This document shows positions 8,521 through 63,198 of a DNA stretch of 64,000 nucleotides, one piece after another. The notes under the pieces were generated by a model. It was not told where the DNA came from. It saw nothing but the letters and a program-made list of their open reading frames with translations, and searched no databases. The translations under genes were made by a program, and so were the position numbers. The stretch's first letter is position 1. Each line of letters starts with the position of its first letter. Origin of the DNA: Squalus acanthias (lineage: Eukaryota); the NCBI GenBank assembly GCA_030390025.1, contig CM059431.1, positions 140,866,001 to 140,930,000 of the forward strand, in the 5' to 3' direction.

Positions 8521-8601
8521 ATCATAGAATCATCCAGCAGAGAAGGCGGCCATTCAGCCTATCGAGCCTGGACCCGCTCTTTGAAAGAGCAATCCAATTA
8601 G
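4591..8601 (+). CDS. Gypsy gag-pol polyprotein (1336 aa, uninterrupted)
   Basis: Two CCHC knuckles (CFFCGDEFHPRRFC, CSHCNKKGHFVKVC), protease LIDSGS, RT (DLKSAYHQ, LPFG, YLDN), RNase H (CDAS, EKEA, TDQ), integrase HHCC and D-D-E (SIDFKGP, SDRGPSF, VERFN). The last ~27 aa are read from the adjacent CR1 tail. Confidence 0.95.
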   Translation: MENILKPSRLDLDPNTPAAGKVWKHWYRTFENFLEYCKADDNSKLRILINCVTPNVFQYVEDWDSYEEAIQTLKRLYTKTPNEVYARHLLATAQQGPEESIDKFLQELRRLSMDCNFRAASAELYREEMIRDAFICGLASPFIRQRLLESKTLELQRAYDLACSLDLAKRNADLFTVPRPRSAALTTVRQFKRPQVNSIREDFIPDDRSDDFTDEEDDDPTVAASWQSKKCFFCGDEFHPRRFCPARNAFCSHCNKKGHFVKVCLSRASTRAYQAKSYRTAPVRAYQDVPTKNYRASSRVFSRRNTPRISATLCATTPITAACPQNLFHAATKASIKGHTLDALIDSGSTDSFIREQTVAQLKLHVFPSDQAVAMAQSSLNTRISGFCVVEIMLKGHRYPSTRLSVLKDLCSDLILGLDFQKQHKKLTIEFGGSKPELTISNIRPRLPFCALSAASLDEPSLFASIPPRCKPIITKSRRFSQEDQSFIAAEISRLLAEDIIEPCSSPWRAQVVIVKNPLQPHKKRLCIDYSQTINQYTDLDAYPLPRIDDMVNKLAEYTVFSTYDLKSAYHQVPLKVSDKQYTAFEANGRLYQFRRLPFGVTNGVAVFQRAMDDLVKQEDLKDTFPYLDNITVAGRNQQEHDANLQRFWDALQHRNLTLNAAKSIESQPTINILGYCVGNGIIKPDPERLRPLQELPPPKNPASLRRALGLFAYYAKWIPNFSDRIQPLLKASTFPLDTTAVAAFNLLKKQLEKAALHSIDESLPFVVECDASEVAISATLNQEGRPVAFLSRTFQGAELHYPPVEKEATAIIEAVRKWSHLLARQHFTLITDQRSVAFMLDNRKRTKIKNNKIQLWRLELASFGYTIHYRPGKENVAPDTLTRAFCSAMAPSTLVDIHDGLCHPGVTRMLHFVRSRNLPFSTGDVKKMCSDCRVCAELKPRFFRPSGGILIHATQPMQRLSIDFKGPLPSSTRNTYLLTMVDEYSRFPFAFPCPNMLTTTVISCLEQVFAFCGMASYVHSDRGPSFMSGELKAYLSERGIAASKTTPYHPVGNGQVERFNAIIWNAVRLALRSRGLPNQQWEAVLPDALHSTRSLLSTATNTTPHERFFRFQRRSSYGTSLPSWLTTPGPVLLRRYVRASKNDPLVDEVELTDVNPTYAYIRYPDGRESTVSLRDLAPCPPKHRGTPGDDIVPGTSLGLPGASHHDRDLTPAGTSLQRADLGQTDYEPVGARTRSHDQPCTVRSETDLSQPCPTPIRVPVHGQDRSDPSQSGLEHSDSGPWPAAGKRARGPLPLREPKRVRLSLESVIAIIESSSREGGHSAYRAWTRSLKEQSN

Positions 8602-18600: not shown

Positions 18601-19390
18601 CTGACTTGATTTTTCCTCTACATTTGGCTGTGCATCACACCCTACTATAGCTCCACTCCATATTCCATCCCCTTGCCAAGTTTGTTTAAACCACCCCCCC
18701 CACCACCCCCCACCACCACCCCCCCCCCACCCCCCATCAAACAGTACTAGCAAATCTCCCCGCAAGGATGTTGGTTCCGTTCCGGTTCAGGTGCAACCCG
18801 TCCGACTTGTACAGGTCCTACCTTCCCCAGAAGCAGACCCAGTGGTCCAGGAATCTATAGCCCTCCCTCCTGCAACAACTCTTTAGCCACGCATTCATCT
18901 GTTCTATCCTCCTATTCCCAAAGTCACTAGCACGTGGCACCGGGAGTAATCCAGAGATTGCAACCTTTGAGGTCCTGCTTTTTAATCTGCTACCTAGCTC
19001 CCTAAATTCTTCTTGCAGGACCTCATCCCTCTTTCTGTCAATGTCGTTGTTACCAATGTGAACCACGACCTCTGACTATTGACCCTCCCCTTTCAGAATG
19101 CCCTGCAGCCATTCAGTGACATCCTTGACCCTGGCACCAGGGAGACAACATACCATCCTGGAGTCACGTCTGCGGCCACAGAAACGTCTATCTGTTCCCC
19201 TTACGATTGAATCCCCTATCGCTATTGCTCTCCGACGCTTTTTCCTCCCCTCCTGTGCAGCTGAGCCACTCATAGTGCCACGGACTTGGCTCTTGCTGCA
19301 TTAACCTGAGAAACCATCCCCACCCCCCCCATCAGTATCCAAAACGGTAAATCTGTCGGAGGGAGATGGACCTTGGGGGCTTCTGCACTA
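15655..19390 (-). mobile_element. Long CR1 LINE with ORF1 esterase-like domain and disrupted ORF2
   Basis: ORF1 pieces IGDSIVRG and VHIGNND (SGNH-like); ORF2 FNARSL, ITETW, GDFN, SDHN, DFSKAFD, KFADDTK; tail (AGAGTCAT)n at 15655. Confidence 0.93.
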
Positions 19391-21092: not shown

Positions 21093-24000
21093 GAGCAGTA
21101 CAGAGGGAGTGCGATACTGAGAAAGTGCTGCATTGTCGGAGGGGCCGTACTGAGGTCGAACCTCACTGTTGGAGTGGCTGCAGCACTGTAGAAGTAGTAC
21201 TGCTGAGGAAGCGCTCCACTGTCGAAGGGGCAGTATTGATGAAACGCTGCAATGATGGTTGGGCAGTACTGAGGGACTGCTGCACTGTTGGAGGGGGAGC
21301 ACTAAGGGGGTACCACACTGTCGGAGGGGCTGTATTGATGAAATGCTGCAATGATGGTTGGGCAGTACTGAGTGATTGCTGCACTGTTGGAGGGGCAGCA
21401 CTAAGGGAGTGAAACACTTTCGGAGGGGCTGTATGGTGAGAGTCCTTAACTGAAGAAGGCACAGTACTGAGGAAGTGCTGAATTGTCGGAGCTGCAGTAC
21501 TGAGCGAATGTTGCACTGTCAATGGGACAGCACTGAAAGAGAGCTGCCCTGTCGGCGGGGCAGTACTGAGGGAATGCTGCACTATCGGTGCGTCAGTAAT
21601 GATAGACCGCTGTATTGTCGGACGGGCAGTAGCAAGGGAGTGCTGTACTGTCAAAAGGGCAGTAGTGAGCGAGTGTTGTACTGTCGGAGGACAGAACTGA
21701 GGGAGTTCGGCACTGGCGGAAGGGAGGTACTGTGGGAGTGCTGCACTGTCGAAGTTCAGTACTGAGGGAGACCTGTACTGTCGGAGGCGTAGCACTAAAG
21801 GAATGCAGCACTGTCACACAGGCAGTACTGAGAGACTGCTTCAATGTCGGATGGTTCGTACTGACAGACCGCTGCAAAGACGAAGGAGCACTACTGAGGG
21901 GTGTCACACTGCCGGAAAGCCAGTACTGAGAGAGTGCACAGCTGATGTAGGACAGTCCTGGGTGTGTGCTCTACTGTCGGAGTCTACACTTTCGCAGGGC
22001 AGCATTGGTGAGTGCTGCATTGCAGGTTGGGCAGTACAGTGGGACTGCTGCGCTGTCCTAGGCGCTCGATTGAGCGACTGCTGCACGATTGGAGGTTAGT
22101 AATTAGGGACTGACGTACTGTCGGGTACAGTACTGAGCGATCGTTGCACTGTGGGAGCGGCAGTTAATTTAGTTTATTGGTTCCTGGGATGTGGGCGTCA
22201 CTGGCAATGCCAGCATTTATTGCCCATCCCCAATTGCCCTTGAGAAAGTGAGCCGCCTTCTTGAACCGCTGCAGGGCAGGTATTCCCACAGTACGAACTG
22301 TGTCGTTTCAATTTTGTACAACTGAGTGGCTTGGCCATTTCAGAGTCAACAATATTGCGGTGGGCCTGGAGTCACATATAGGCCAGACTGGGTAAGGATG
22401 GCAGATTTCCTTTGCTAAAGGACATTAGTGAACCAGATGGATTTTTACAACAATCCGGTAGTTTCATGATCAACATTTTTTTTAAAATCCTGAATATTTA
22501 ATTAACTGAATTTAAATTTCCCCAGCTGCCTCTGGTGGTATTTGAACTCACGTCTAATCATATAATCATTAGCCCTGGCCTGCTGGATTACTAATTCAGT
22601 AACATAATCACGATGCTACCGTACACTCGTTGCGAGAGCCACGCACCACCGGAGGTGCAATATTGAGGGGGCGCTGCAGCGTCGGAGGGGTAGTACTGAG
22701 GGAGCGCAGTATCTTTGGCGAGTCAGTGCTTAGAGAGTGCGGCTGCATCAGCGAGCCAGGACTGAAGAGCGCAGGCAGGTGTAGGGCAGTCCTGGGTGTC
22801 TGCCGTACTCTAGCAGTGTCATTACTGAGGGAGTGCTGCACTGTCAGAGGGTCAGTGCTGTGTGATTCGTGCACTGTCAGCGTGTCAGTGCAGAGTGATT
22901 GCAGCACTGTCAGAGGGTCAGTGCTGAGTGATTGCTGCACTGTCAGAGGGTCAGTGCTGAGTGATTCCTGCACTGTCAGAGGGTCGGTGCTGAGTGATTC
23001 CTGCACTGTCAGAGGGTCAGTGCTGAGTGATTGCTGTATTGTCAGAGGGTCAGTGCTGAGTGATTCCTGCACTGTCAGAGGGTCAGTGCTGTGTGATTGC
23101 TGCACTGTCAGAGGGTCAATGCTGAGTGATTGTTGCACTGTCAGAGGGTAAGTGCTGAGTGATTCATGCACTGTCAGAGGGTCAGTGCTGAGTGATTCCT
23201 GCACTGTCAGAGGGTCAGTGCTGTGTAATTGCTGCACTGTCAGACGGTCAATGCTGAGTGATTGCTGCACTGTCAGAGGGTCAATGCTGTGTGATTGCTG
23301 CACTGTCAGAGGGTCAATGCTGACTGATTGCTGCACTGTCAGAGGGTCAGTGCTGAGTGATTCCAGCACTGTCAGAGGGTCAGTGCTGAGTGATTCCTGC
23401 ACTGTCAGAGGGTCAGTGCTGAGTGAGTGCTGCACTGTCACAGGGTCAGTGCTGAGTGAGTGCTGCACTGTCAGAGGGTCAGTGCTGAGTGATTGCTGCT
23501 CTGTCAGAGGGTCAGTGCTGAGTGATTGCTGCACTGTCAGAGGGTAAGTGCTAAGTGATTGCTGCACAGTCAGAGGGTCAGTGCTGAGTGATTGCTGCAC
23601 TGTCAGAGGGTCAGTGCTGTGTAATTGCTGCACTGTCAGACGGTCAATGCTGAGTGATTGCTGCACTGTCAGAGGGTCAATGCTGTGTGATTGCTGCACT
23701 GTCAGATGGTCAATGCTGACTGATTGCTGCACTGTCAGAGGGTCAGTGCTGAGTGATTCCTGCACTGTCAGAGGGTCAGTGCTGAGTGATTCCTGCACTG
23801 TCAGAGGGTCAGTGCTGAGTGAGTGCTGCACTGTCAGAGGGTCAGTGCTGAGTGATTGCTGCTCTGTTAGAGGGTCAGTGCTGCGTGATTGCTGCACTGT
23901 CAGAGGGTCAGTGCCGAGTGATTGCTGCGCTGTCAGAGGGTCAGTGCTGAGTGATTCCTGCACTGTCAGAGGGTCAGTGCTGTGTGATTCCTGCACTGTG

Positions 24001-25840
24001 TGAGGGTCAGTGCTGAGTGATTGCTGCACTGTCAGTGGGTCAGTGCTAAGTGATTCCTTCACAGTCAGAGGGTCAGTGCTGAGAGATTCCTGCACTGTCA
24101 GAGGGTCAGTGCTGAGAGATTCCTGCACTTTCAGAGGGTCAGTGCTGAGTGAATGCTGCACTGTCAGAGGGTCAGTGCTAAGTGATTGCTGCACTGTCAG
24201 AGGGTCAGTGCTGTGTGATTCCTGCACTGTGTGAGGGTCAGTGCTGAGTGATTGCTGCACTGTCAGAGGGTCAGTGCTAAGAGATTCCTGCACTTTCAGA
24301 GGGTCAATGCTGAGTGATTGCTGCACTGTCAGAGGGACAGTGCTGAGTGATTGCTGCACTGTCAGAGGGTCAGTGCTGAGTGATTGCTGCACTGTCAGAG
24401 GGTCAGTGCTGAGTGATTGCTGCACTGTCAGAGGGTCAGTGCTGAGTGATTGCTTCACTGTCAGAGGGTCAGTGCTGAGTGATTGCTGCTCTGTCAGCGG
24501 GTCAGTGCTGAGTGATTGCTGCACTGTCAGAAGGTCAGTGCTGAGTGATTCCTTCACTGTCAGAGGGTCGGTGCTGAGTGATTCCTTCACTGTCAGAGGG
24601 TCAGTGCTGAGAGATTCCTGCACTGTCAGAGTGTCAGTGCTGAGTGATTGCTGCACTGTCAGAGGGTCAGTGCTGTGTGATTGCTGCACTGTCAGAGGGT
24701 CAGTGCTGAGTGATTCCTGCACTGTCAGAGGGTCAGTGCTGAGTGATTGCTGTCGCAGAGGCAGTACTGAGCCAGTGCTTCACTTCCGGATGGATAGGAC
24801 TGCGGGAGCGCTGCAACGTCGGAGGTGCAGTACTGAGTGATCTCTGCACTGTCGGAAGAGCAGTACTGTGTGAGTGCAGTACTTTTTTTAGAGTCAGTTC
24901 TTAAGCAGTGCTGCACTGTCAGAGAGTCAGTTGTGAGGGAGTGTTGCACTGTTGGAGCGCATGTACTAAAGGAGCAGGGCTTAAATAGGGCAGTACTGTG
25001 GGTGAGCTGTCATCTCGGATTGTCATTACTGAGGCTGCGCTGCACTTTAGCAGGTGCGCTGCACTGTTGGGGAGGCGATATGAGGGAGTGCTGCTGTCGG
25101 AGGTGCAGTACTGAGGGAATGCTGCACTATCAGAGGACAGTACTGAGGGAGCACTACATTGTCAGTGGTGCTGTACTGTGCGAGTGCTGCACTGTCGGAG
25201 TTTCAGTACTGAGGGAGTGCTGCATTGCCTGAGCGGCAGTACTGAGAGAGCGCTGTACTGTCGGTGGTGTTGTTCTGTGCGAGTGCTGCACTGTCGGAGG
25301 GGCAGTCCTGAGAGTGCGATGCACCGTCCGAGCGTCAGGTCTGAGGAAAAGCTGCACCGTCGGAGGTGCTGTACTGTGGGAATGCTTTACTCTCGGAGTC
25401 TCAGTACTGAGGTTGTGCTGTAATCTCACAGGGGCAGTAATGCAGAAGTCCTTCGCTGGCGGATGGGCAGGACTGAGGAAGGTCTGCACTTGGCGGTTAA
25501 GTACTTTGTAATGGTGCCACATTAGCGGGGCCGGTACTGAGGGAGCGCTTCAATGTCGAATTGGTAGCACTGAAGGAACGCTGCACTGTCGGAAGGTCAG
25601 AACTGAGGGAGTGCAGTACTTTCGGAGAGTCAGTACTGAGGGAGTGCTGTACTGTCTGATGGGCAGTCGTGAGGGAGTCTTCCTCTCCCGGAGGTGCAGT
25701 ATTGCGTGAATGCAGCACTGTCGGAGCTGCAGTACTGACGGATTGCACTACCTTCGAAGAGTCAGTACTGTAGTAGTGCTGCACAGTCGGAGGGGCCGTA
25801 GTGAGAGAGCACTGGGGTACCGTGGGGGCAGTACTGGGCA
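21093..25840. repeat. 33-bp minisatellite; degenerate flanks, homogeneous core ~22830-24750 (about 58 units)
   Basis: Core unit GTCAGTGCTGAGTGATTGCTGCACTGTCAGAGG; flank units near GCAGTACTGAGGGAGTGCTGCACTGTCGGAGGG. Confidence 0.97.
22165..22625 (-). mobile_element. tRNA-derived SINE inserted in the minisatellite
   Basis: Non-array sequence; antisense B-box-like GAGTTCAAATACC near 22540-22550; shares GGTAAGGA.GGCAG.TTTCCTT and AATTAACTGAA.TTAAATT blocks with the copy at 41310-41625. Confidence 0.75.
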
Positions 25841-27402: not shown

Positions 27403-27660
27403 TCCATCCATCCATCCATCCATCCATCCATCCATCCATCCATCCATCCATCCATCCATCCATCCATCCATCCATCCATCCATCCATCCATTCATCCATC
27501 CATCCATCCATTCATCCATCTATCCATCCATCCATTATTCCATCCATCCATCCATCCATACATACATACATACATCCATTCCTCCATCCATCCGTCCATC
27601 CATCCATCCATCCATCCGTCCACCCATTAACCCATCAACCCACCCTCCCATCCATTCACA
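27403..27660. repeat. (CCAT)n microsatellite in the GCNT intron
   Basis: Direct reading. Confidence 0.98.
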
Positions 27661-38663: not shown

Positions 38664-39107
38664 GTGAGCCATTGTAACCTGTTTATTGTTAATCGGCGTT
38701 AACTGTGTCCTTCTTCTTACTGCCTGTTGGTTAAGGTAACGCGTTCTCCGATGTCAGCATTACACAGTCAGCAGTGACTGGACCTACTAGTGAACCGCCT
38801 GCCCACAGTTCCGTGTTCCCCTTAATATGATCAAGTTAATGATGTTATAAAGCTCTTTGAAGCTCCAATACAATAATTTTAGTGGATTTCCGGACCGTCT
38901 TGTCCCCCCGTGCAGAGTGAGCGCTGAAGCAGCTCATTAAAATGTGTGGGTGGGTTTCCCAGGTAATGGCTCCAAAACGAATGATGTTCTCACACTGCTC
39001 CGTGTTGATAATCACACTGAATGGAGTAAAATGCTCTCCACAGGTATCTCCATATATATGGCAATCAGACACTGGAACATTATTTCTCTCCTCTCTCTTT
39101 CTTACAG

Positions 39108-40018
39108 CGCACTTGGTGACAATTGTGATTCTCTCCCGAGGAAACTGCGGCCTTTCCAAGTGTATCTCTGTCTACATGGTGGCCATGGCAACAGCAGATC
39201 TACTGGTCATGATCATCAATGTAATAGTGTATCATATTTTCAGTTATCACTTTCCACTTTCATTCATGTCCCACACTCCCGTGTGTAGGGTCATTCTATA
39301 CATGTGTATTATCACATTCGATTTGTCGGTTTGGTTCACTGTCTCCTTCACATTTGATCGATTTGTAGCTCTCTGCTACAAGAAGTTTAAAGCAAGGTAT
39401 TGGACTGCGCGATCTGCGGCCGCGATTATAACAACGTTCTCTGTTTTGAGTTGTTTTAAGGATATTCCAGTTTTGATTGTATATAAACCTCAGCAAATAA
39501 TTAACAAGGTGCAGTGGGGCTGCGGGTCAAGTGTGACATTTTTTTCATCACCTCCAGGTGTAGCTTACGTCTGGTTTCACAGCGCCTGGGTTGTTTGGCT
39601 TCCTTTTACTTTAATCGCCTTGTTTAATACTTTAACGGTCCGACGTATTTTAGTGGCCAGCAGAGCTCGCAGGAGACTCCGGGGTCACAAGACTGAGAAT
39701 CACGGCGATCCAGAGACGGAGCACCGAAGGAAATCCTGTATTTTACTCTTCACTATTTCGGGCAGTTTTATACTATTGTGGCTGAAAGCTGCCGTGAGTT
39801 TTGTATCTACCAGACTGACAAACCCTACTAATTACCGAGGCGACCGCACAAATCCTGGATATACCGCCACTGAAACCGGAGCTCTGCTGAAGTTTTTGAG
39901 TTGCCTTCAAAACCCGTGCATTTATGCAGCGACCCAGAGGAAATTCAGGGAAGAGCTGAAGAATGTGGTGAAATATCCCTTGACCCTGATTCTGAGATTA
40001 GTTAGAAAATGCGGATAA
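39108..40018 (+). CDS. GPR139-like class A GPCR, coding exon 2 (spliced product 326 aa)
   Basis: Pyrimidine tract plus TTACAG acceptor ending 39107; MATADL (TM2), SVWFTVSFTFDRF (TM3), NPCIY (TM7), KFREEL helix 8. Confidence 0.9.
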
Positions 40019-48960: not shown

Positions 48961-49112
48961 CAGCATCTAAATTCAACAGTGACAGAAATCACGATGGACG
49001 TTTAAAGAGATTTTGAAAATAAAATCCCATTAATTTAAGTTTAACATTTACTGTTACTGTTTACTTTTTAAAACCTAAAATTACCAGCCTTAAGCAGGGT
49101 TATAAAGGGATA

Positions 49113-52100
49113 TACAAGGCCTACAATTCAGAGCAGCTGAAGGCAGTTAATTAGGGAAACTAGATTCTTTGTTTCAGGGCCTATAAAAACAAGCTTTGCA
49201 GTGCGATATGCACTGAGTGCGGTTTGCACAGAGTGCTGGGAGTTGGGTGAGTCAGGGAGGAGGAGACAGAAGACAGAGCGACGAAGGACAGAGTGGAGAC
49301 CCTTTCCACCTCCACCACGCCTGCAGCTACAAGCTACAACTACAGCAACTTCTACTGCTGAGGTGCCAGAGGGGAGAGAGGAAAGGAGACCAATAACAAC
49401 AACAGAGGGAAGCCATTCCATTACTGCCTCCCCAACTGGTCTCCATTACGAGAGAGGGAGAGAGGAGAAACAAAACCAACACCTGCTTGGAAGGAGAATA
49501 ACATCTAGAGGTGGGTGTTAAAAAGGGCACTCTCCAAAAGACTTTGTATTTGAGGTGGGGGGAGCAAAGAAGAAGGAGAAGACCGGCACAGCAAGGGTTG
49601 TGTGTTGGTGCGTGTGGTTCTTGCTAATAAATAGGCCACACACACCATCAACAAGCACCCCTTGCCTATTGCTTCACCTGGGACAGCTGGAGCTGCCCAG
49701 GCAAAGTCATCAATCTATTTTCCCATCTACAACATCGTTAAGACCTGGTGGTGGACTGAGCCTGGTCATCTCCAGCTTTATTTTCCCAGGTGAAAACATC
49801 TTCTCCCCCCACCAGAAGAACATCAAAAAAGACTATAATTAACATCGGAAAGTGCCCCCCCCTGGAATCACTCACCCACCCACTATCCTGAGTGGCGAAC
49901 AGGCCCGTGCGGCCTTGCTCCTTCGTTCCCCCCCTCTCTCTCTCTCTCTCTTTCTCTCTCTGCCTCTCTCTCTATAACGAGGCACCTCTAATTTTATTAA
50001 TTACCAAATTGAGCAGAGGGGAGGAGGCACCTCTCCCAATTCCAATCATCAAAGGGAGAGGTGTGCCTTCATTTTTAAAACAACCTCCTCTGCTCGGGGA
50101 AAAGACAAAAAAAAACCAAGGCCATTTCAACCATCTCCCGGCCTGTGACTTAAGGTGAGTGTAGCCCTTTATAACTCCTCAGTATGGCGAGCACCTCTTC
50201 GCCGGCGACGGGGCCAGCAAGGTCGTACGCGGGTGTGGCAGCCACGGCCACAGCCAGTCCCGCTGCTTCTGCTGCCCCATCGCCTTTCAGGCTACTGACC
50301 AAAATACTGGGGGTGAAGAGCGACACTCACCCCAACATGACCATAGAGGCTTGCGTCAAAGCCATGGCTGGGGTAGTCGGCCCCTCAGCCATCGTAGCGG
50401 CCTCTAAAATGTACGGAAAGGCTGTGTTCTTCCTGAGGTCGGGGCGGGAGGTGTCCCTGGCCGTCACCAAGGGGCTCACCGTGGGCGGGACCTTCCTGCT
50501 GGTGGATCCGATCGATGAGTCTGTCCAGCCTGTGCCTCCCGGGGACGGGGAAGAGACCCTGCTCGTGGGGGGGGGGGGGGGCCGCAGAACTACCCGCGGA
50601 GGGAAATTATACTGAACAGTTGTTTCTCGCCAGGTCGGGCGTACTGGGGACCGGGGTGGGCGACGCCGATGAGGCTGAGCCCGCCGTATACGGTCAGGAC
50701 TACTCCCAGGTGCTGCTCGATCTGGTGGAGCAATTCAATCAAGGTCCCCGGTCCGCTGGGTCAGAGGATGGTGGCGGTGAAGGGGAAGGCCCCCTGACTC
50801 CGTCTCCGACGCTGGCGCCGGGGGTGTTGGGGGAACTGGCACTAATGTACTCCCCGGTTTTCCCGTGCAACCCGGTGCTGGGGGCGGAGGGGGGCCCTGA
50901 GCCACCGACGCTTCCTGACCCGGCGCCTCTGGAGGACCCCAGGGAGGACTCCTCTGTCGCCGATCCTGGGGGTGGGATCGGGGCAGAGGTAGGGCCAGCT
51001 GATGGCGACCCCCCAGAAGAGGACGGGGACCCGGCGGAGGACACTGAGGATGACATGGAATCCGTCGCCAGCGAGGCGGCGGATACCCTCCTGCCCCCCT
51101 CCGGGTCCCCCCTCATCCCCGTTGTGGAACTCCGGGACTTTGTGGCCATGGGCCAAGGTCGCCAGGATATAATCCGGCTGGCCATTGATAAATGGTCGGA
51201 TCTGGCGCTGCTCGTTTGCTCCGACCGCGCCGCAGTCAAAACCATGGGCGCGGACGAGGCCCTGGGCACGGCCGAGCGGCATCGGATCCGGAAGTTCCTC
51301 GCTGGGCTTAGAAGGGAGCGGCGGTCGACCACCGGCCGCGCTCCCTCCTCCCGTTAGAGTAAGGTAGAGGTTGCACTATGCTCTTGTCATGAAGTTAACC
51401 ATAGCCAGCCTGAACATCAACGGCAGCAGAGAGGTACGCCGTAGATTTAATAACTTTTCGGCCCATCGGGAAGGGAGGCATGCGGTGTGCTTCCTGCAGG
51501 AAACTCACACTGTTCCAGGAGACGAGGCCACGTTGCTCCTGGAGTGGCGAGGAGGGGTCAGCATGAGTCACCTCCCCAACATTTCCGGTGGGGTGGCTAT
51601 GTTGCTGGCCCCGCATTTTCAGCCGGAGATCTTGGGGGTCAAGGAGCATGTGCCGGGCCGCTTGCTCCAGGTCACTGTTCGCCGGGGGGGCGTGCCGTTC
51701 CTTTTAGTGAGCGTGTACGCCCACAAGGCCGGTGCACAGCAAATGCGCTTCTTCAAAGAAGTGTCCGCTCTTCTGGGCACCGTCGACGTCGGCGAGTGCG
51801 TCATCCTCGGGGGGGATTTTAATTGTACCCTTGAGGTGAGGTACCGTTCGGGACCTCTGCAAAGCCTGGCGGTGACGGTGAAGTTGAGGGACCTGGTCGG
51901 GTCCTTCGACTTGGTGGACGTCTGGCGAAATCTTCATCCCGACTCCAGCGCCTTCACTTGGGTGGGGTCTGGAGGAGGAAGGTCCAGAATCGACCGCCTT
52001 TATATTTCCCGGGCGTACGTCTCCTGCGTTCCGGCGGCTTCCATGCAGCCGGTGCCGTGCACGGACCACCACCTGGTGTGGGCGGAGCTCGCTCCTTTGC

Positions 52101-55100
52101 GGGAGCCGGGGGGGGGCCCGCGTACTGGCATTTTAACAACCTGCTGCTGGAGGACGTGCGGTTCCAGGATTCGTTTCGCCGGTTCTGGGCCGACTGGAGA
52201 AGGAAGCAGGGGGGCTTCACCTCCTTGAGGCTATGGTGGGAAGTGGGCAAGGCTCACGTCCGTCTCTTCTGTCAAGAGTACGCAAGGGGGTCGACCAAGA
52301 GGCGGGAGACCCGGGTCGTGCGGTTGGAGCGGGAGGTGCTCGACCTGGAGTCCCGTCTCGGTCAAGTCGTCGAAGACCCGGCCCTGCGGAAGGTGTACGA
52401 AGAGAAGAAGGGCGCGCTGAAGAACCTGCAGCTGGTTGGGTCCCGAGGCGCGTACGTGAGGTCGCGGATGCAGTTCCTTCGGGACCTGGACCGCGGCTCC
52501 CCCTTCTTCTACTCGCTGGAAAAAAGACGAGGGGTCCGTAAGCAGCTCTTGGGGCTGCTGGTCGACGACGGATCTCTGGTCTCGGATCCGGAGGGGATCA
52601 GCGCGGAGACCCGGGCCTATTACGGGGCTCTGTTCTCTCTGGATCCGTCCAGCGAGGATGCGTGCAAAGTTTTGTGGGAGGACCTGCCGAAGGTCGGACC
52701 GGAGGGCGCCGAAGAATTGGACACTCCGCTAAGCTTGGCTGAGCTGACCGGCGCCCTCGGCCAGCTCTCGAGGGGAAAGTCCCCGGGGCTTGACGGGCTG
52801 ACCGTGGAGTTCCACAGAACGTTCTGGGACTTCTTGGGGGGCGACTACGCGCGGGTCCTGGGGGAAAGTCTGGCGACCGGGGAGATGCCCCTCTCTTGGC
52901 GCAGGGCGGTCACTGGCGCCCGGTCTCCCTTCTCAGCATGGACTATTAAATTTTTGCCACAGCCATGTCTGCCCGCCTCGGCACCGTGCTGGCCTACATG
53001 ATCCACCCCGACCAGTCCTATATGGTCCCGGGCCGGACAATCCACGACAACATCCATCTGGTCCGGGACCTGGTCCACCTTTCCCATAGGGCTGGTCTGT
53101 CGGTCGCCTTCCTTTCCCTGGATCAGGAGAAGGCGTTCGACAGGGTGGATCACGAGTATCTTTTCGGGACTCTGTGCGCATTCGGGTTCGGGACGCATAT
53201 CGTCGCCCGGTTCCGACTTCTGCACGCCGCCGTGGAGTGTCTGATTAAAGTTAATGGGTCTTTGACGGCGCCCCTTCGCTTTGGGAGGGGGGTACGTCAG
53301 GGATGCCCCATGTCCGGTCAGTTATATGCCGTTTGCGTGGAGCCTTTCCTTCGCATCTTGCGGAAGAGGTTGACGGGACTGGCTCTGCAAGGGCCGGGCG
53401 TGGAAGTCGTACTCTCGGCTTACGCTGATGATGTGCTCCTCATGTTCACGGATCCCGTCGACTTGCGGAGGATGTGAGAATGCCAGCAGATTTACTCGGA
53501 CGCATCCTCCGCCAGGATCAACTGGGAGAAATGTTCTGGACTCCTGGTGGGCCAGTGGCGGGTGGACTCCCTGCCGGAGGAGTTCAGGCCCTTCGCCTGG
53601 AGCACAACGCACCTCCTCTACTTGGGAGTCTACCTCGGCACTGCCGAGGACACCTGGCCGGCGAACTGGCAAGAGCTGGAGGCCAAAGTCACCGCTCGCC
53701 TAGGACGCTGGACGGGGTTGCTCCGAGTGTTGTCCTACAGGGGTCGAGCGCTGGTTATAAACCAGCTGGTGGCCGCCATGTTGTGGCACCGGTTGGTCAC
53801 TTTGATCCCTCCCGCCTGTGTTTGTCGCCAAGGTATAGCAGATGCTCATCGACTTCTTCTGGGTCAAAAGGAAGCACTGGGTCTCTGCCACAGTTCTGTG
53901 TATCCCGCTTAGGGAGGGCGGTCAGGCGCTGGTGTGCCTTCGCAGCCAGGTGGCGACTTTCCATCTTCAGACGCTGCAGAGGTACCTTTACGTCGAGAAT
54001 CCTCCCAGATGGTGTGCGCTGGCGACGTGTTTCTTCCGTCAGATGCACGGCCTCAACTATGACACGCAGCTCCTGTTTGTGGAATTGGGCCGCACGCGAG
54101 CCTACCTGTGGGAGCTGCCTGTCTTCTACCAGGAACTGCTATTTTTCTGGATCCAGGTCGCCTCCAGGCGGAGTTCTCCCCCGTCAGGAGTGGCGGCTCT
54201 CCTTCGGGAACCGCTGCTCAGGAATCCGCACATCCACGTCCAATGGATCAGGTGGCTGGCGGAGGGCAGGGCTGTGCCTGGCAAGGTGACCAGAGTCGGG
54301 GACCTGCTCTATGGCGGAGGAGCGGGCTGGATGGTGCCGGAGGAGTTGGAGTGGCGCCTCTCCTGGGTCGACGTCTGCCGCGCGACCAAAGCCATCGAGT
54401 CGCTGAAAGTGGCACTGGGCCCGGACTCCACTAGGTGTATCGAGGAGGCTCAAGCACGTGCGGCGATCCCGTCCGAACTGACCTCCGTTCGGACGGAATT
54501 CCTCATCGGTGCGCGGCCCCAAAACCCCTCTCGGGAACCAGCGTCTCACAACTTGAGCCGCCTCGGGGAAATGCCCTCCGTGCCCTTCAGTTCTGCATGG
54601 AGGGGTTTCCTGTACGGGCTGCTCCTGCACACTTTCCACTTTGTCATCTTCGCCTGCCGTCCGGACACGCCTTGGCGTGCCATCTTGCCGTCCGGCGGAG
54701 GCGAAGGTCCCCAATGGAGGGCTCTCTACGCGGGAGTCCTCCCCTTTTCTATTGGGGACATGGCCTGGAGGGTGTTGCACGGAGCAGTCCCGTGCAATCA
54801 GTTTTTAATTAGGTTCACAGACTCCCAGGCTGCCTGTCTTTTTTGCGGCCTCGAGGAGTCCATGTTCTACGTGTACGTACAATGTGAGAGGTTGCAGCAC
54901 CTTTTTGAATATTTGAAGGGGCTGCTCCACGCTTTTTGGTTGCACTTCAGTCCCACGCTCCTGATCTATGGTCACCCGGTGCGGAGCGGAGAGGGCAGGT
55001 CGGAGGACCTCCTCGTAGGACTGCTCCTGGGCCTGGCCAAAGTTGCCATTAACAGGTCCAGGCAGCGGGCGGTCGAGGGGGTCGTTCGGCCCAATTGCCT

Positions 55101-55311
55101 GCCTCTCTTCCGTGGCTATGTTCGCGCCCGGGTGGCCCTGGAGATGGAGCATGCGGTGTCCGCCGGCATGCTTGCAGCCTTCCGAGACCGGTGGGCGCCG
55201 CAGGGACTGGAGTGCATCGTCTCCCCGGACTATGTCATTTTAGTTTAATGAGATAAGTTTCATTTGAAGTTTTGTTAATTTACAGTCGTTTTATGCTGAC
55301 TCAAAAAGAGT
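49113..55311 (+). mobile_element. Tx1-clade non-LTR retrotransposon, copy A (inactivated)
   Basis: ~1.07-kb leader; ORF1 50184-51357 with internal deletion near 50512; ORF2 from ATG 51389 to 55248 with APE (SLNING, LQETH, GGDFN, RIDR, TDH), RT (LDQEKAFD, RQGCP, YADD) and C-terminal CxxC..C; several frameshifts. Confidence 0.92.
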
Positions 55312-55589
55312 TACAAGGCCTACAATTCAGAGCAGCTGAAGGTAGTTAATTAGGGAAACTAGTTTCTTTGTTTCAGGGCCTATAAAAACAAGCTTTGCAG
55401 GGCGATTTGCACTAAGTGCGGTTTGAACAGAGTGCTAGGAGTTGTGTGGAAGAGAAGAAGGAGACAGAGACACGAAGGGCAGAGTGGAGACCGTTCCCAC
55501 CTCCACCACGCCTGTTGCAGCTATTACAAATACTATTACTGTTGAGGTGCCAGAAGGGAGATAGCAGAGGAGAGAGACCAGAGGAGACC

Positions 55590-58500
55590 TTTTTGAGGCA
55601 TTGGGACCAGTTTTGTGGTAGGTGTGACCTATACAAAAGGGACGGTCTACACCTGTGCAAAGATGGAACTGAGGTTCTCGGGGTAAATTTTGATAAAGCA
55701 GTTCGGGAGCATTTAAACTAGTATGGCAGGGGGCTAGAAACCCATGTAGTGAAATAGAGGAAAGTGAAAGGCAGACAGAAATAAATGGTAAAAAGGAGAG
55801 GAACAAAAAACAAAGGGCCAAACTAATTCATAAAAAATGTGAGCATAAAAAAAGCCTGAGGGTTTTATACCTTAATGCGAGAAGCATCAGGAACAAGGTA
55901 GATGAATTAGCTGTGGAAATAGAGGTTAATAATTATGATCTAATTGGGATTACGGAAACATGGTTGCAGGGTGAGCAGGGCTGGGAGCTTAACATACAGG
56001 GGTATTCAGTATTTAGGAAGGATCGACAAAAAAGAAAGGGAGGAGGGGTAGCATTGCTGGTAAAAGAGGGGATAAATGCAATTGAAAGGAAGGATATTAA
56101 CTCAGTTAATACAGAATCTATATGGGTGGAGCTAAGAAATAGCGAGGGGCGAAAAACATTAATAGGAGTGGTATATAGGCCTCCAAATAGTAAAATAGAG
56201 GTTGGGGAGGGCATCACGAGGGAAATTAGAGAAGCGTGCAATAAGAGCACAGCTGTCATCATAGGTGACTTTAACTTACATATAGATTGGACTAGCCTAA
56301 TCAGTAAAAATAATGAGGAGGAGGAATTCCTTGAGTGTTTAAGGGATGGTTATCTGGATCAATATGTCGAGGAACCAACTCGGGAACAGGCTATATTGGA
56401 CTGGGTACTGTGCAATGAGAAGGGACTAATTAGTAATCTTGTTGTACGGGGACCCTTGGGTCAGAGCGATCATAACATGATCGATTTCTCACTCGAAATG
56501 GAGAGCGAAGAAATTGACTCAGAGACTCAGGTCCTGAATTTAAACAAGGGGAATTATGATGCCATTAGACGGGAACTGAGTAGGTCTGATTGGACAACGT
56601 TCCTGGGAGGACTGGAGGTAGATAAACAATGGCAAGCATTTAAAGATAGAATGACAAAATTGCAAAAATTGTTTATACCAATCTGGCATAAAAGGAAATC
56701 TAAAAAGGTGACTCAACCGTGGATAACAGGGGAAATTAGAGACAGCATAAAATCCAAAGATAGGGCGTATAAAATAGCCAAAAAACGCGCCAGAGCGGAA
56801 GATTGGGAACAGTTTAAGATAGAGCAAAGGAGGGCAAAGGGCTTAATCAAGAAGGGCAAAATAGCTTACGAAAGCAAGCTGGCGGAAAATATAAAAACTA
56901 ACTCCAAAAGCTTTTATAAGTATATCAAGAGGAAAAGACTGGTGAAAACCAAAGTTGGTCCATTGCAGTCAGATACGGGGGAATATATAATGGGAAATAA
57001 GGAAATGGCAGACCAACTAAATGCATACTTTGGGTCAGTCTTTACGAAGGAAGACACAAAAAACCTCCCTGGGATATCGGGAAAAATAGGGACATTGGCA
57101 AAGGAGGAACTGACGCAAATCAATATCTCTAAGGATATGGTGTTAAGGAAGCTAAAGGGATTGAAGGCGGACAAATCCCCAGGGCCTGATAACATGCATC
57201 CTAGGGTACTGAAGGAGGTGGCCCTAGAGATAGCGGATGCACTAAGCATGATTTTTCAGAATTCATTAGACTCGGGAACAGTGCCCATGGATTGGAGGGT
57301 AGCTAACGTTACCCCACTATTCAAAAAGGGGGGTAGGGAAAAAGCAGGTAATTACAGACCTGTAAGCCTTACATCAGTTGTGGGCAAAATGCTGGAGTCC
57401 ATCATTAAGGATGAAATAGCCGAGCACTTAGCAAATGGGGACAGGATAGGACAGAGTCAACATGGATTTACAAAGGGTAAATCGTGCTTGACTAATCTAT
57501 TGGAATTTTTTGAGGGAGTAACTGGTAAAATAGATGGGGGAGAGCCAGTAGATGTGGTGTACCTGGACTTCCAAAAGGCCTTCGATAAGGTCCCACATAA
57601 AAGATTAGCATGGAAAATTGAAGCTCATGGGATAAAGGGGAAAGTATTGACGTGGATAGAGAACTGGCTGTCAGATAGAAAACAGAGAGTTGGAATAAAC
57701 GGCTCATTTTCTGAATGGCAGGCAGTAACAAGTGGGGTACCACAGGGATCTGTCCTGGGTCCCCAGCTGTTCACAATTTATATTAATGACCTGGATCAGG
57801 GAGTCGAATGCAGCATTTCCAAATTTGCAGACGACACTAAACTAGGAGGGGGGGTGGGCTCAGAGGAGGAGACCAGGAAGCTCCAGAGCGATTTGGACAG
57901 ACTGGGTGATTGGGCGGATAAATGGCAGATGCACTATAATGTGGACAAGTGCGAAGTTATCCACCTTGGGTGCAGGAACGGGAGGGCAAATTATTATTTA
58001 AATGGCAATAAATTGGGAGAGGGGGAAGTACAGAGAGACCTGGGTGTTCTTGTACACCAGTCACTGAAGGCGAGCATGCAGGTGCAACAGGCGGTCAAGA
58101 AGGCAAACGGTATGCTGGCCTTCATAGCAAAAGGGTTGGAATACAGGAACAGGGATACCTTGCTGCAGCTGTACAGGGCACTGGTGAGACCACACCTCGA
58201 GTACTGTGTACAGTTTTGGTCGCCTCATCTGAGGAAAGATGTTCTTGCCATGGAGGGGGTGCAGCGGCGATTCACCAGGCTGATACCAGGAATGGCGGGA
58301 TTGACCTATGAGGAGAGACTATGTAGTTTAGGGATGTACACACTGGAGTTTAGAAGATTGAGAGGGGACCTCATAGAAGTGTATAAAATTCTGACAGGTC
58401 TAGACAGATTAGATGCAGAAGGAATGTTTCCCTTGGCGGGTGAGAACAGAACTAGAGGACATAATTTAAGGATAAGGGCTAAACCATTTAGGACAGAAAT

Positions 58501-58592
58501 GAGGGGGAATTTCTTTACTCAGAGAGTGGTGAACCTGTGGAACTCATTGCCACAGAGGGCAGTGTACGCCAGCTCATTAAATATATTTAAAA
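55590..58592 (+). mobile_element. Young CR1 LINE segment truncated at both ends
   Basis: Starts in the ORF1 C-terminus (FLRHWDQF...RDGLHL) and ends within ORF2 at SLNIFK; Tx1 leader resumes at ~58593. Confidence 0.93.
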
Positions 58593-58636
58593 ACAACAGC
58601 AGAAGGAAGCCTTTCCATCACTGCCTCCCCAACTGA
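55712..58636 (+). CDS. CR1 ORF2 (APE endonuclease plus RT), open from the ORF1 overlap; last 14 aa from the Tx1 leader
   Basis: Frame is stop-free from 55697; includes YLNARSI upstream of the track's GTG start (55913), GITETW, VYRPP, GDFN, SDHN, DFQKAFD, KFADDTKL. Confidence 0.85.
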   Translation, partial: FKLVWQGARNPCSEIEESERQTEINGKKERNKKQRAKLIHKKCEHKKSLRVLYLNARSIRNKVDELAVEIEVNNYDLIGITETWLQGEQGWELNIQGYSVFRKDRQKRKGGGVALLVKEGINAIERKDINSVNTESIWVELRNSEGRKTLIGVVYRPPNSKIEVGEGITREIREACNKSTAVIIGDFNLHIDWTSLISKNNEEEEFLECLRDGYLDQYVEEPTREQAILDWVLCNEKGLISNLVVRGPLGQSDHNMIDFSLEMESEEIDSETQVLNLNKGNYDAIRRELSRSDWTTFLGGLEVDKQWQAFKDRMTKLQKLFIPIWHKRKSKKVTQPWITGEIRDSIKSKDRAYKIAKKRARAEDWEQFKIEQRRAKGLIKKGKIAYESKLAENIKTNSKSFYKYIKRKRLVKTKVGPLQSDTGEYIMGNKEMADQLNAYFGSVFTKEDTKNLPGISGKIGTLAKEELTQINISKDMVLRKLKGLKADKSPGPDNMHPRVLKEVALEIADALSMIFQNSLDSGTVPMDWRVANVTPLFKKGGREKAGNYRPVSLTSVVGKMLESIIKDEIAEHLANGDRIGQSQHGFTKGKSCLTNLLEFFEGVTGKIDGGEPVDVVYLDFQKAFDKVPHKRLAWKIEAHGIKGKVLTWIENWLSDRKQRVGINGSFSEWQAVTSGVPQGSVLGPQLFTIYINDLDQGVECSISKFADDTKLGGGVGSEEETRKLQSDLDRLGDWADKWQMHYNVDKCEVIHLGCRNGRANYYLNGNKLGEGEVQRDLGVLVHQSLKASMQVQQAVKKANGMLAFIAKGLEYRNRDTLLQLYRALVRPHLEYCVQFWSPHLRKDVLAMEGVQRRFTRLIPGMAGLTYEERLCSLGMYTLEFRRLRGDLIEVYKILTGLDRLDAEGMFPLAGENRTRGHNLRIRAKPFRTEMRGNFFTQRVVNLWNSLPQRAVYASSLNIFKNNSRRKPFHHCLPN

Positions 58637-59153
58637 TCTCCAGTAAGAGAGAGGGAGAGAGGAGAAACAAAACCAACACCCGTTTGGAAGGAGGGAGAGC
58701 GAGCCATCGAGGAGAATAACATCTCGAGGTGGGTGTTAAAAAGGGCACCCTCCAAAAGACTTTGTATTTGAGGTGCGGGGAGGAAAGAAGAAGGAGAAGA
58801 CCGGGATAACAAGGGATGTGTGTTGGTGTGTGTGGCTCTTGCTAATAACTAGGCCGCGCACACCATCAACAAGCACCCCTTGCCTAGTGCTTGACCTGGG
58901 ACAGCTGGAGCTGCCCAGGCAAAGTCATCAACCTATTTTCCAATCTACAACATCGTTAAGACCTGGTGGTGGACTGAGCCTGGGCATCTCCAGCTTTATT
59001 TTCCCAGGTGAAGACATCTTCTCCCCCCACCAGAAGAACATCAACAAAGACTGTAATTAACATCGGAGAGTGCCCCCCCCCCCCGGAAGCAACCACCCAC
59101 CCACTATCCTGAGTGGCGAACAGGCCCGTGCGGCCTTCCTCCTTCCCACCCAG

Positions 59154-59191
<38 letters not shown>

Positions 59192-62100
59192 CTTCTCTCT
59201 AACGAGGCAGCTCTATTTTATTAATTACCCAATTGAGCAGAGGGGAGAAAGCCACTCTCCCAATACCAATCATCAAAGGGAGAGGTGTGCCTTCATTTTT
59301 AAAACAACCCCCTCTGCTCGGGGAAAAGACAAAAAAAAACAAGGCCATTTCAACCATCACCCGGCCTGTGACTTGGGGTGGGTGTCGCCCTCTATAACAC
59401 GTCATTATGGCGAGCAGATCTTCGCCGGCGACGGGGCCAGCAAGGTCGTACACGGGTGTGGCAGCCACGGCCACAGCTGGCCCCGCTGCTTCTGCTGCCC
59501 CGTCGTCTTTCAGGCTACTGACCAAAAAACTGGGGGTGAAGAGCGACACTCACCCCAACATGATCATAGAAGCTTGCGTCAAAGCCATGGGTGGGGTAGT
59601 CGGCCCCTCAGCCATCGTAGCGTCCTCTAAAATGTTCAGAAAGGCTGTGTTCTTCCTGGGGTCGGAGCGTGCGGTGGCCCTGGCCATCATCAACGGGGCT
59701 CACCGTGGGCGGGACCTACCTGCCGGTGGATCCGCTCGAGGCCACCGCGCAGTGAATCATACTATCAAACGTCCCGCACTTTGTTCCGGTTGAGCTCCTC
59801 CTCCCCCACCTACGTCAACTGGGGGAGGTGAGGTCGGGGATTAATCCGATCCCGCTCGGCTGCAGGGATGCCAGCCTTCGGCACGTCTTCTCCTTCCAGC
59901 GCCAGCTGTTTATCCAGCTGGTGCGGGAGGAGGACACGGAGGGTGCATTTAGCGTCCAACATGAGGGGACCGCCTACCGCGTCTTCTGGACGTCGGAAGG
60001 TGTGCGGTGCCACGCCTGTAAGGATGTGGGGCACATAAGAAAGAACTGCCCCGCCTCCAAGGCCGCCAAAACATCTGAGGCGGCCAAGGCTGGCGCCGCC
60101 GCCACTCCTCTCTCTGTTTCTGTCCACGCGTCCGCGACACCCGAGGCGTGGTCGACGCCAGAGGTCGACGCCGTCGTGGCCTCTGGCAGAGGGGAGGGGG
60201 AGCATCCGATCGGAAGGAAGGCGCGGAAGAAAAGTAAACACCTTCAGGCGGTCCCCCTTGACGTACACGATGATTTACCCGAGCTTACGCACCCATACCT
60301 TGCGCAGGAAGCGGCGGTGCTCGAGAATGCGAGGGGCCTCGTGCCCGTGCCTGCGGCCGCAAACGCCAAGGCGGCAAGATCGAGACCTGCGGCCGTGACC
60401 GGGCCCGGGACCCCCGAGCAAACCGATCGACATGGGGGAGCGGAGGTGGAGGCCTCGGTACGCATGGAGGTCTCCCAACCTCCGTGTCCCTCCACACTGA
60501 AAAGGAGGCGCGACGCCCTGGAGGAGGAGGAGGAGGACCGCGAGGAACAGGGTCCCCCCTTGCAAGGGGAGTCGTCGCCCGCCGCGGGGGCTGCGCCCCC
60601 CCCCCCTACCGTCACCATCACCGACATCCGGCAGGGGTCGCCTGTCCCCCGGGAGGGCATGACAGAAGAGTCTGTCCAGCCTGTGCCTCCCGGGGATGGG
60701 GAAGAGACCCTGCTCATGGTGGGGGGGCCGCGTAACTACCCGCGGAGGGAGATTATACCGAACCGTTGTTTCTCGCCAGGTCGGGCGTCCTGGGGACCGA
60801 GGCGGGCGAGGACGATGAGGCTGAGCCGGGGTGGCTATCTTGCTGGACCTGCATTTTCAGCCGGAGATCTTGGGGGTCAAGGAGCATATGCCGAGCCGCT
60901 TGCTCCAGGTCACTGTTCACCTGGGGGGCGTGCCGCTCCATTTAGTGAGCATGTACGCCCCCCAGGCTGCTGCGCAGCAAGAGCGCTTCTTCGAAGAAGT
61001 GTCCGCTCTTGTGAGCGACGTCGGCGAGTGCGTCATCCTCGGGGGGGATTTTAATTGTGCCCTCGAGGCGAGAGAGCTTTTGGGTCCACTACGAAGCCTG
61101 GCGGCGATGGTGAAGTTGAAGGACCTGGTCGGGTCCTTCGACCTGGTGGACGTCTGGCGAAATCTCCATCCTGACTCCAGCGCCTTCACTTAGGTGGGGT
61201 CTGGAGGAGGAAGGTCCAGAATCGACCGCCTTTATAAATCTCGGGCGTACGTCTCCTGCATTCCGGCGGCTTCCATGCGGCCGGTGCCATGCATGGACCA
61301 CCACCTGGTGTGGGCGGAGCTCGCTCCGTTGCGGGCGCCGGGGAGGGTCCGCATACTGGCATTTTAACAAACTGCTGCTGGAGGACGCGCGGTTCCGGGA
61401 TTCGTTACGCTGGTTCTGGGCCAACTGGAGAAGGAAGCAGGGGGGCTTCCCCTCCTTGAGGCTATGGTGGGACGTGGGCAAGGCTCACTTCCGTCTCTTC
61501 TGTCAAGAGTATGCGAGGGGGTCGAACAAAAGGCAGGAGGCCCGGGTCGGGTTCTTGGAGAGGGAGGTGCTCGACCTGGAGTCCCGTCTCGGTCAAGTCG
61601 TCGAAGACCCGGCCCTGCGGAAGGAGTACGAAGAGAAGAAGGGCGCGCTGAAGGACCTGCACCTTGTCGGGTCCCGAGGCGCGTACGTGAGGTCGTGGAT
61701 CCAGTTCCTCCAGGAACTGGACCGCGGCTCCCCCTTCTTCTACTCGCTGGAAAAAAGACGAGGGTACCTATTACGGGGCTCTGTTCTCTCCGGATCCGTC
61801 CAGCGAGGATGCGCACAGAGTTTTGTGGGAGGTCCTGCCGAAGGTCGGCCCGGAGGGCGCCGAAGAATTGGACGCTCCGCTAAGCTTGGCGGAGCTGACC
61901 GGCGCCCTCGGCCAGCTCTCGAGAGGAAAGTCCCCGGGGCTGGACGGGCTGACCGTGGAGTTCCACAGGGCGTTCTGGGACGTCTTGGGGGCGACTACAC
62001 GCGGTTCCTGGGGGACAGTCTTGCGACCGGGGAGATGCCCCTCTCTTGGCGAAGGGTAGTTATCGTCCTGCTGCCCAAGAGGGGTGATCTCCGCCTTTTA

Positions 62101-62983
62101 AAAAACTGGCGCCCGGTCTCCCTCCTCAGCACGGACTATAAAATTTTTGCCAGGGCCATGTCTGCCCGCCTCGGCACCGTGCTGGCCCACATGATCCACC
62201 CCAACCAGTCCTACACGGTCCCGGGCCGGACAATCCACGACCACATCCATCTGGTCTGGGACCTGTTCCACCTTTCCCAGAGGGCTGGTCTGTCGGTCGC
62301 CTTCCTTTCCCTGGATCAGGAGAAGGCGTTTGACAGGTTGTATCACGAGTATCTTTTCGGAACTCTGCGCGCATTCGGGTTTGGGACACATTTTGTCGCC
62401 CGGATCCGACTTCTGTACGCAGCCGCAGAGTGTCTGATTAAAGTTAACGGGTCTTTGACGGCGTCCCATCGCTTTGGGAGGGGGGTTCGTCAGGGATGCC
62501 CCATGTCCGGTCAGTTATACGCCGTTTGCGTGGAGCCTTTCCTGCGCTTCTTGCGGAAGAGGTTGTCGGGACTGGCTCTGCAAGGGCTGGCCATGGAGGC
62601 CGTCCTCTCGGCTTACGCTGATGATGTGCTCCTCATGGTCACGGATCCCGTCGACTTGTGGAAGATGCAAGAATGCCAGCAGGTTTACTCGGACGCATCC
62701 TCCGCCAGGATCAACAGGGAGAAATGTTCTGGACTCCTGGTGGGCCAGTGGCGGGTGGACTCCCTGCCGGAGGAGTTCAGGCCCTTCGCCTGGAGCACAA
62801 CGCACCTCCTCTACTTGGGAGTCTACCTCGGCCCTGCCGAGGATACCTGGCCGGTGAACTGGCAAGAGCTGGAGGCCAAAGTCACCGCTCACCTAGGACG
62901 CTGGACGGGCTTGCTCCGAGTGTTGTCCTACAGGGGTCGAGCGCTGGTCATAAACCAGCTGATGGCCGCCATGTTGTGGTACC

Positions 62984-63198
62984 TGTCATAAATCGCAAGT
63001 AACAACTCAGGAAGTACTTCTGGGCGGCCAGCTGGGGCGCCGTCCAGGGAGTATAAATACTCAGGCATGGGCCCACCTTGGGCAGAGACAATCTGGAAAC
63101 AGGAAGCTAGTGACTGCTAACTGGACCTCCATGTTTTGTTACAAGTTGATTAAAGCCTTGCTTTATGTTCAAGTGCGTAGTGAGTCTTTATTACGTCA
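62984..63198 (+). repeat. 5' LTR (215 bp) of Gypsy element B
   Basis: TGT start fixed by the Tx1 breakpoint; TATAAATA 63052-63059; ATTAAA 63149-63154; ends TTACGTCA. Confidence 0.85.

Follow-up and report, generated by a model that had tools for sequence, protein, structure and literature searches.

A conserved slippery heptamer at the ORF1-ORF2 junction points to probable -1 frameshifting in esterase-type CR1 LINEs

How ORF2 is translated from the bicistronic RNA of a LINE is described as unclear in a passage of PMC3708506. The same question is raised by a CR1 copy in the window, the 64-kb stretch of DNA that was analysed: by which route do ribosomes enter an ORF2 that has its first methionine codon only behind the endonuclease domain? 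The 3' remnant of ORF1, which encodes an SGNH esterase (55589-55721, + strand; DGLHL at 55641, C-terminus ...VREHLN*), reads CAT TTA AAC TAG at 55709-55721 (...DKAVREHLN*). As stated in a preliminary description of this DNA, it ends in the slippery heptamer T_TTA_AAC (TTTAAAC at 55712-55718, +), which lies in the ORF1 register and is immediately followed by the stop codon TAG (55719-55721, +). ORF2 (55697-58636, +) opens at 55697 in the -1 frame relative to ORF1, also as described, and runs for 979 codons through a linker, an APE endonuclease from 55868 (PF03372 and PF14529) and a reverse transcriptase at about 57332-57964 (PF00078). The motifs YLNARS, ETW, GDFN and SDH are found at residues 58, 87, 190 and 257, and the first methionine, which had been placed at the end of the endonuclease domain, is residue 261 (ATG at 56477), after all four motifs. 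No AUG in the ORF2 frame overlaps or adjoins the ORF1 stop. The sole adjoining AUG, at 55723, is in the +1 frame and opens a four-codon ORF right behind that stop (ATG GCA GGG GGC TAG, 55723-55737, +). A GGGGG run, a candidate stimulator element, begins 11 nt 3' of the heptamer (55729-55733, +). By itself the heptamer is frequent, with 15 matches on both strands of the window; heptamer, stop, seven bases of any kind and GGGGG together, a pattern derived from the very CR1 junctions that were scored, occurred once against 0.05 expected (at most 1 mismatch).

The copy itself is a CR1 fragment truncated at both ends (55589-58588, +, ends approximate) that lies in the 5'UTR of a Tx1-like element. 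An uninterrupted paralogue (49113-49389 and 49392 onward), with the empty site at 49389/49392, matches the sequence on both sides of the fragment (55312-55573 and 58589 onward), which revealed a 5' truncation that the preliminary description had missed. Only the last ~43 esterase codons of ORF1 are present; the remnant itself gave no Pfam match (relatives carry PF13472) and is 59% identical to the esterase end of a second CR1 copy in the window. In RNA reads of a related species, ORF1-like letters continue upstream of 55593-55594. Because the fragment ends at about 58588 in the Tx1-like 5'UTR, the last ~15 residues of ORF2 derive from the flank, and the copy, cut before the ORF2 end, lacks the 3'UTR stem-loop/microsatellite tail of CR1. 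Being 5'-truncated, the window copy would not itself make an ORF1-ORF2 fusion; since it is doubly truncated, the junction signal was judged as a trait of the family. The element was assigned to CR1 by its similarity to known elements and because published CR1 consensuses have junctions that match its own; named close relatives came from a ray, a frog and birds, the best being from a stingray and a skate, which makes a cartilaginous fish the likely host. A CR1 fragment lacking both the 5' part and the 3' tail is an unusual insertion for target-primed reverse transcription. The Tx1-like LINEs are two head-to-tail elements (49100-55250 and 55300-63000, +) of about 90% identity, both with a broken ORF2.

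The second CR1 copy (15815-19232, - strand) is divergent and decayed, with stops in both its esterase ORF1 part (about 19232-18741) and its ORF2 (18690-15815). TTTAAAC is present at the homologous position (18684-18690, -), with AAA in place of the ORF1 stop. Its ORF2 is 46% identical to that of the window copy (FKQTWQGDG versus FKLVWQGAR behind the junction), and its esterase is fuller, with a GDS...DGLH domain. A G-rich low-complexity expansion (18690-18736, -) between the esterase end and the heptamer breaks its ORF1 frame.

To look beyond the window, metagenomes were scanned with an alignment of 13 ORF1 esterases, with search patterns that lay far upstream of the junction and were blind to the heptamer. 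This yielded 71 loci, of which 24 had no match to the esterase C-terminus, 7 ended before the junction, 3 were L2-like fish elements, 14 were distant esterases and 23 were of CR1 type and reached the junction, the label 'CR1-type' having been assigned after the sequences were seen. Together with the two window copies, the latter gave a set of 25 junctions. TTTAAAC was exact in 20 of them, three had TTTAAAT or TTTAAAA (one of these, L022, adjoins an indel), one had GTTAAAC and one TATAAAC; these counts are not independent, because the lineages share ancestry and amount to a handful of deep lineages, not 25 trials. A stop codon followed the heptamer immediately in 20 junctions, and in the remaining five the codon was one base off a stop. 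No junction with heptamer plus stop was found in the 17 other esterase loci that reach the ORF1 end (3 L2-like, 14 distant). The L2-like fish elements (L021, L052 and L053) have the same esterase, and their ORF1 ends in ...TGACTG without the heptamer, pointing to a different route of ORF2 translation in these elements.

The CR1-type loci comprise bird-like families (with ORF2 resembling stork and crane proteins), other families and the two shark-type copies; between groups, the flanks are about 40-50% identical. Within this divergence, each heptamer position was conserved in 14-15 of 15 representatives while neighbouring positions varied, as did, freely, the synonymous sites of the DGxHL motif. 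The leucine codon at the heptamer is TTA, although TTA makes up 11-19% of the leucine codons of these ORF1s. It is preceded by a T under varying residues (A, C, S, Y, H, F or G), and T accounts for 31-38% of the third bases of the relevant residues. The heptamer, which fits the pattern X_XXY_YYZ in the 0-frame register inside the ORF overlap, is therefore conserved beyond coding need, at synonymous sites.

The phase was conserved as well. The endonuclease starts in the -1 frame in 14 of the 18 loci that hold it, and the 4 off-frame loci are copies with a one-base indel from families that are otherwise in frame; conservation of heptamer and phase, proposed earlier as a check, was thus borne out across these loci. 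In the interval that starts at the heptamer and ends at the endonuclease or the first AUG (13 loci, 374 codons), the -1 frame contained 2 stops, both in one decayed copy, compared with 13 and 46 in the other frames. In 12 of the 25 junctions the -1 frame extends upstream for no more than 1-5 codons before it is closed, and none of these 12 has an AUG in that interval; entry into the frame is therefore possible only at about the heptamer. It had been argued that initiation at AUG cannot yield an intact endonuclease. This holds for the window copy and four more of 13 relatives, but not for the clade, as an in-frame AUG precedes the endonuclease in 8 of the 13, at a place that varies between codons 4 and 38.

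The same pattern was visible in protein collections, where 149 new representatives at 50% identity were obtained, 81 with DGxH and 72 with tails of 23-39 residues. Fifty-one of the 72 end in LN (43) or GN (8), both of which can be coded as X_XXY_YYZ, against a background of 6.4% for these dipeptides at internal positions (92/1428); none of six DGxHP (L2-like) tails has such an ending. The residue before LN can have a codon ending in T in 42 of 43 cases, and all 8 GN endings are preceded by Q, as G_GGA_AAC would require. In a profile search, a further 16 proteins ended in xGN, out of 19 close relatives that extend to the C-terminus, and the terminal asparagine was invariant in 13 of 13 aligned ORF1s. 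As judged from the protein endings, the Q-G-N-stop class is compatible with use of G_GGA_AAC, and a swap between LN and GN, that is between two known slippery heptamers, would be a strong covariation. DNA candidates for this class, 6 pattern matches and 4 prokaryotic loci, were rejected since none was CR1; a plasmid match was unrelated to the esterase, the viral contigs held no DNA of the class, and no frame-crossing copy was present among the cluster members. Four predicted proteins run from ORF1 into ORF2 through FKL; as natural indel copies or gene models they confirm the relation of the frames, not frameshifting. Two further observations concern other tails. The ORF1 tails of P0324, P0330 and P0343 end in GFLGRV, GQFFH and QRFFR, which leaves room for a U-rich slippery site located one to three codons ahead of the stop. 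A large class of CR1 ORF1s (P0134-P0194) ends in YLN, and many of its members have an SH3 domain inserted before the esterase.

Published consensuses provided a further set of junctions. In the supplement of PMC13343379, a motif-positive search of the first 400 characters of each entry, which gives no denominator, listed 23 matches to TTTAAAC plus stop, of which 18 were judged by eye to lie at an ORF1 end. Going by the name codes, from which the species were inferred, these represent halosaur (Crack), alligator, bowfin, bullfrog, elephant shark, crocodile, stingray, coelacanth, bearded dragon, sawfish, catshark and dogfish. Three of the remaining five are in unrelated AT-rich L2 or Rex1 entries and two in apparent dogfish 5'UTRs. 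In the rows of the latter (SquAca_CR1-18 and CR1-3), GGTTTAAACTAR is followed by GCGGGAAAC upstream of the likely ORF1 start.

Downstream of viral -1 frameshift sites, a pseudoknot or stem-loop usually follows within a few bases, and a stimulator of this kind was searched for. No such structure was found, with tools that do not predict pseudoknots directly: RNAalifold on 12 junctions gave 0 pairs and no consensus fold, and local folding around the junctions gave z values mostly near 0, with -1.9 or lower in 3 of 29 folding windows. The four segments of the window copy all had z between -0.05 and -0.52, in agreement with the earlier statement that no stimulatory pseudoknot is evident. A G-quadruplex was part of the best fold in L013, L018 and L031 only, and not in that of the window copy. 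What the preliminary description had overlooked is the conservation of the G run 11 nt downstream of the heptamer, an unstructured motif. The alignment is gapless, and the positions of the run are G in 14, 15, 14, 14 and 14 of the 15 representatives, against a background of 30%. The run covers a third codon position whose residue varies (K, Q, S, R or G), and its glycine is coded by GGG in 13 of 14 cases versus 30% in ORF2. Exceptions are L005, in which the run is 3 nt closer, and several consensuses, in which it is shifted or absent. When 13 elements were searched by duplex scan for sequences that could pair with the run from afar, no shared partner was found; the ORF1 CLPG codons (6 of 13) were rejected as a partner, as they lie upstream of the run and are confounded by proline codons.

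RNA reads across the junction were available from two transcriptomes of a related species, with 4157 and 6470 reads on 55540-56140 at identities of at least 82% and a read depth over the junction bin of about 78 and 101. No splice joints or piles of read ends were listed across 55540-56140 in either transcriptome. Among the 13 loose read ends listed of 216, none fell between 55656 and 55933, and among the 40 variants listed of 115, none fell in 55688-55742. Two genomic read sets had 8 and 0 reads on that interval. The reads are consistent with an unspliced junction but are not decisive. In 18 of 24 sequencing runs listed (about nine organisms), 76-91% of the words sampled from 55560-57500 were present, which implies that this CR1 family is of recent origin or evolves slowly, and that it is common to several species.

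Taken together, -1 frameshifting at U_UUA_AAC, leading to an ORF1-ORF2 fusion in esterase-type CR1 LINEs, is the likely explanation. The preliminary description had proposed such a fusion, and the comparative evidence supports it: frameshifting is favoured because the heptamer is conserved in register at ~40-50% flank identity, with an adjacent stop, an upstream -1 frame closed in 12 of 25 junctions and a stop-poor linker. Slippage itself, its rate and any stimulator are what we infer from these features. The tRNA-Leu and tRNA-Asn would slip in tandem from UUA AAC to UUU AAA, and the fraction of ribosomes slipping by -1 would make the trans-frame peptide ...VREHLN-LVWQGAR in the window family. 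Most ribosomes would stop at the ORF1 end and release ORF1p, giving a high ORF1p:ORF2p ratio, as for gag:gag-pol, and the adjacent stop may add a pause. Such a pause, combined with a protein on the single-stranded G run and in place of a pseudoknot, is a conceivable stimulator to which we give somewhat less than even weight.

Alternatively, ORF2 could be translated by termination-reinitiation, at a nearby AUG or independently of AUG, with the heptamer, stop and G run serving termination or retention of the ribosome. Four bird-type loci (L004, L006, L009 and L013) have an in-frame AUG 2 nt behind the ORF1 stop, TAATG occurs in three shark consensuses of the PMC13343379 supplement, its AUG being in frame with ORF2, the position of the stop is conserved, and there are precedents in UAAUG coupling, shown for SART1 (PMC3708506), and in AUG-independent initiation, proposed for mammalian L1 (PMC5009743). 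However, with 4 of 25 junctions and 3 consensuses, a conserved stop-adjacent AUG of the SART1 type was not found in the ORF2 frame; the place of the AUG varies, and 5 of 13 relatives have none before the endonuclease, whereas the Tx1 element of the same window has the conventional layout, in which the AUG lies a few codons ahead of the endonuclease. Reinitiation also leaves unexplained why the last seven bases fit X_XXY_YYZ, why the phase is constantly -1 and why LN and GN are exchanged, and we regard it as unlikely.

It is less probable again that ORF2 is made by some other route and the motif is kept for the C-terminal Leu-Asn of ORF1p or as a DNA or RNA signal, such as a poly(A) signal or a protein site. 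UUUAAA is a weak poly(A) signal. The invariant terminal asparagine of the 13 aligned ORF1s would suit such a role, as would the heptamer letters in the apparent 5'UTRs of the two dogfish families among the consensus entries searched. A need of the protein cannot fix synonymous bases (TTA, AAC and the preceding T), though, the RNA reads cross the junction without a pile of ends, and beyond the heptamer the -1 frame stays open. The lowest probability of all, by a small margin, goes to a spliced or internally initiated RNA as the source of ORF2, with the overlap being incidental. A splice far upstream could have escaped, as the stretch covered by the reads does not include the upstream part of the element and the ends and variants listed were 13 of 216 and 40 of 115; against this explanation stand the lack of joints in the 4157 and 6470 RNA reads, the lack of loose ends in 55656-55933 among those listed, and the conserved heptamer, which it does not explain.

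Frameshifting of this kind would have parallels in other systems. A passage of PMC5009743 ranks U_UUA_AAC and G_GGA_AAC among the most shifty heptamers and mentions use of G_UUA by equine arteritis virus; as in coronaviruses, retroviruses and that virus, CR1 has these heptamers in the same register, with a structural ORF upstream of the polymerase ORF, but unlike them it has no conserved downstream RNA structure. According to the same source, the nsp2TF frameshift of PRRSV is stimulated by nsp1beta and PCBP on CCCANCUCC, 11 nt 3' of the shift site, without RNA structure. CR1 likewise has a short low-complexity motif at 11 nt, the likeness being one of spacing only: the motif is C-rich in PRRSV and G-rich in CR1, the shifts are -2/-1 and -1, respectively, and the PRRSV motif has known binding proteins. 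By this analogy, the spacing suggests that the GGGGG run is a protein-bound stimulator, and it may be a new kind of stimulator.

Among retroelements, TRE5-A and TRE3-A of Dictyostelium are stated to need a -1 frameshift for ORF2 in a passage of PMC5911963. Like CR1 they are APE-type non-LTR elements with two ORFs, of which ORF2 encodes APE and RT; they differ in being from an amoeba and in having an unrelated ORF1, and the passage describes no heptamer, stimulator or assay. Features of CR1 itself are the esterase ORF1, the fixed heptamer plus stop and the G run. Mammalian L1 and silkworm SART1 share with CR1 a bicistronic LINE RNA, and in some CR1 families an AUG is found at the ORF1 stop or close to it, but L1 and SART1 make a separate ORF2p from a start near the stop, and no conserved slippery site is described for them in the passages of PMC5009743 and PMC3708506. 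In Penelope-like elements, which are also retroelements without LTRs, a frameshift that has a pseudoknot may set ORF1 apart, according to a figure legend of PMC8557442; in contrast to CR1, these elements have a GIY-YIG endonuclease, another class of RT and that pseudoknot. A bolder extension, which we put forward tentatively and consider doubtful, is that the esterase-CR1 clade has produced its RT as a gag-pol-like fusion for more than 450 million years, the frameshift being trans-activated by a protein on GGGGG (a host G-run binder or ORF1p) and the heptamers U_UUA_AAC, G_UUA_AAC and G_GGA_AAC being interchangeable across animal lineages.

If frameshifting is confirmed, it would give CR1 a retrovirus-like ORF1:ORF2 ratio and tie the enzyme to the esterase. 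The annotation of intact CR1s would change, as an ORF2 without AUG need not be dead, and CR1 retrotransposition assays should keep the junction. No statement of a programmed frameshift for CR1 was found in the literature searched, and an earlier proposal in older CR1 papers is possible. A turtle CR1 paper reportedly describes overlapping ORFs and may contain such a proposal. The excerpts consulted from PMC3905857, PMC4316615, PMC4120745, PMC8665684, PMC5006619, PMC11835228, PMC5408684, PMC6609765, PMC9004415 and PMC4255032 contain none. The 2026 vertebrate-wide survey, which calls CR1 the dominant retrotransposon in most vertebrates, does not mention translation, ORF overlap or frameshift in the portion of its main text covered here (PMC13343379). 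New in this analysis are the extension to other lineages, bird-like ones among them, the exchange of LN for GN, the relatives with an AUG that speak against the reading, and the G5 motif.

The window holds several other features. A 1343-codon open frame (4570-8601, +) encodes an aspartyl protease, RT, RNase H and integrase in a Gypsy-like order, and no frameshift separates pol from the N-terminal part. A 33-bp unit forms large arrays at 21213-21851, 22818-24752 and 24890-25809; the main block has 58.6 copies at 91%, and on the minus strand the arrays contain an open frame of 723 codons that gave no Pfam match. An exon of a Core-2/I-branching glycosyltransferase (PF02485; 26527-27630, +) runs into a TCCA repeat (27403-27627). 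Finally, a single-exon frame of 365 codons (38921-40018, +) encodes a rhodopsin-family GPCR (PF00001).
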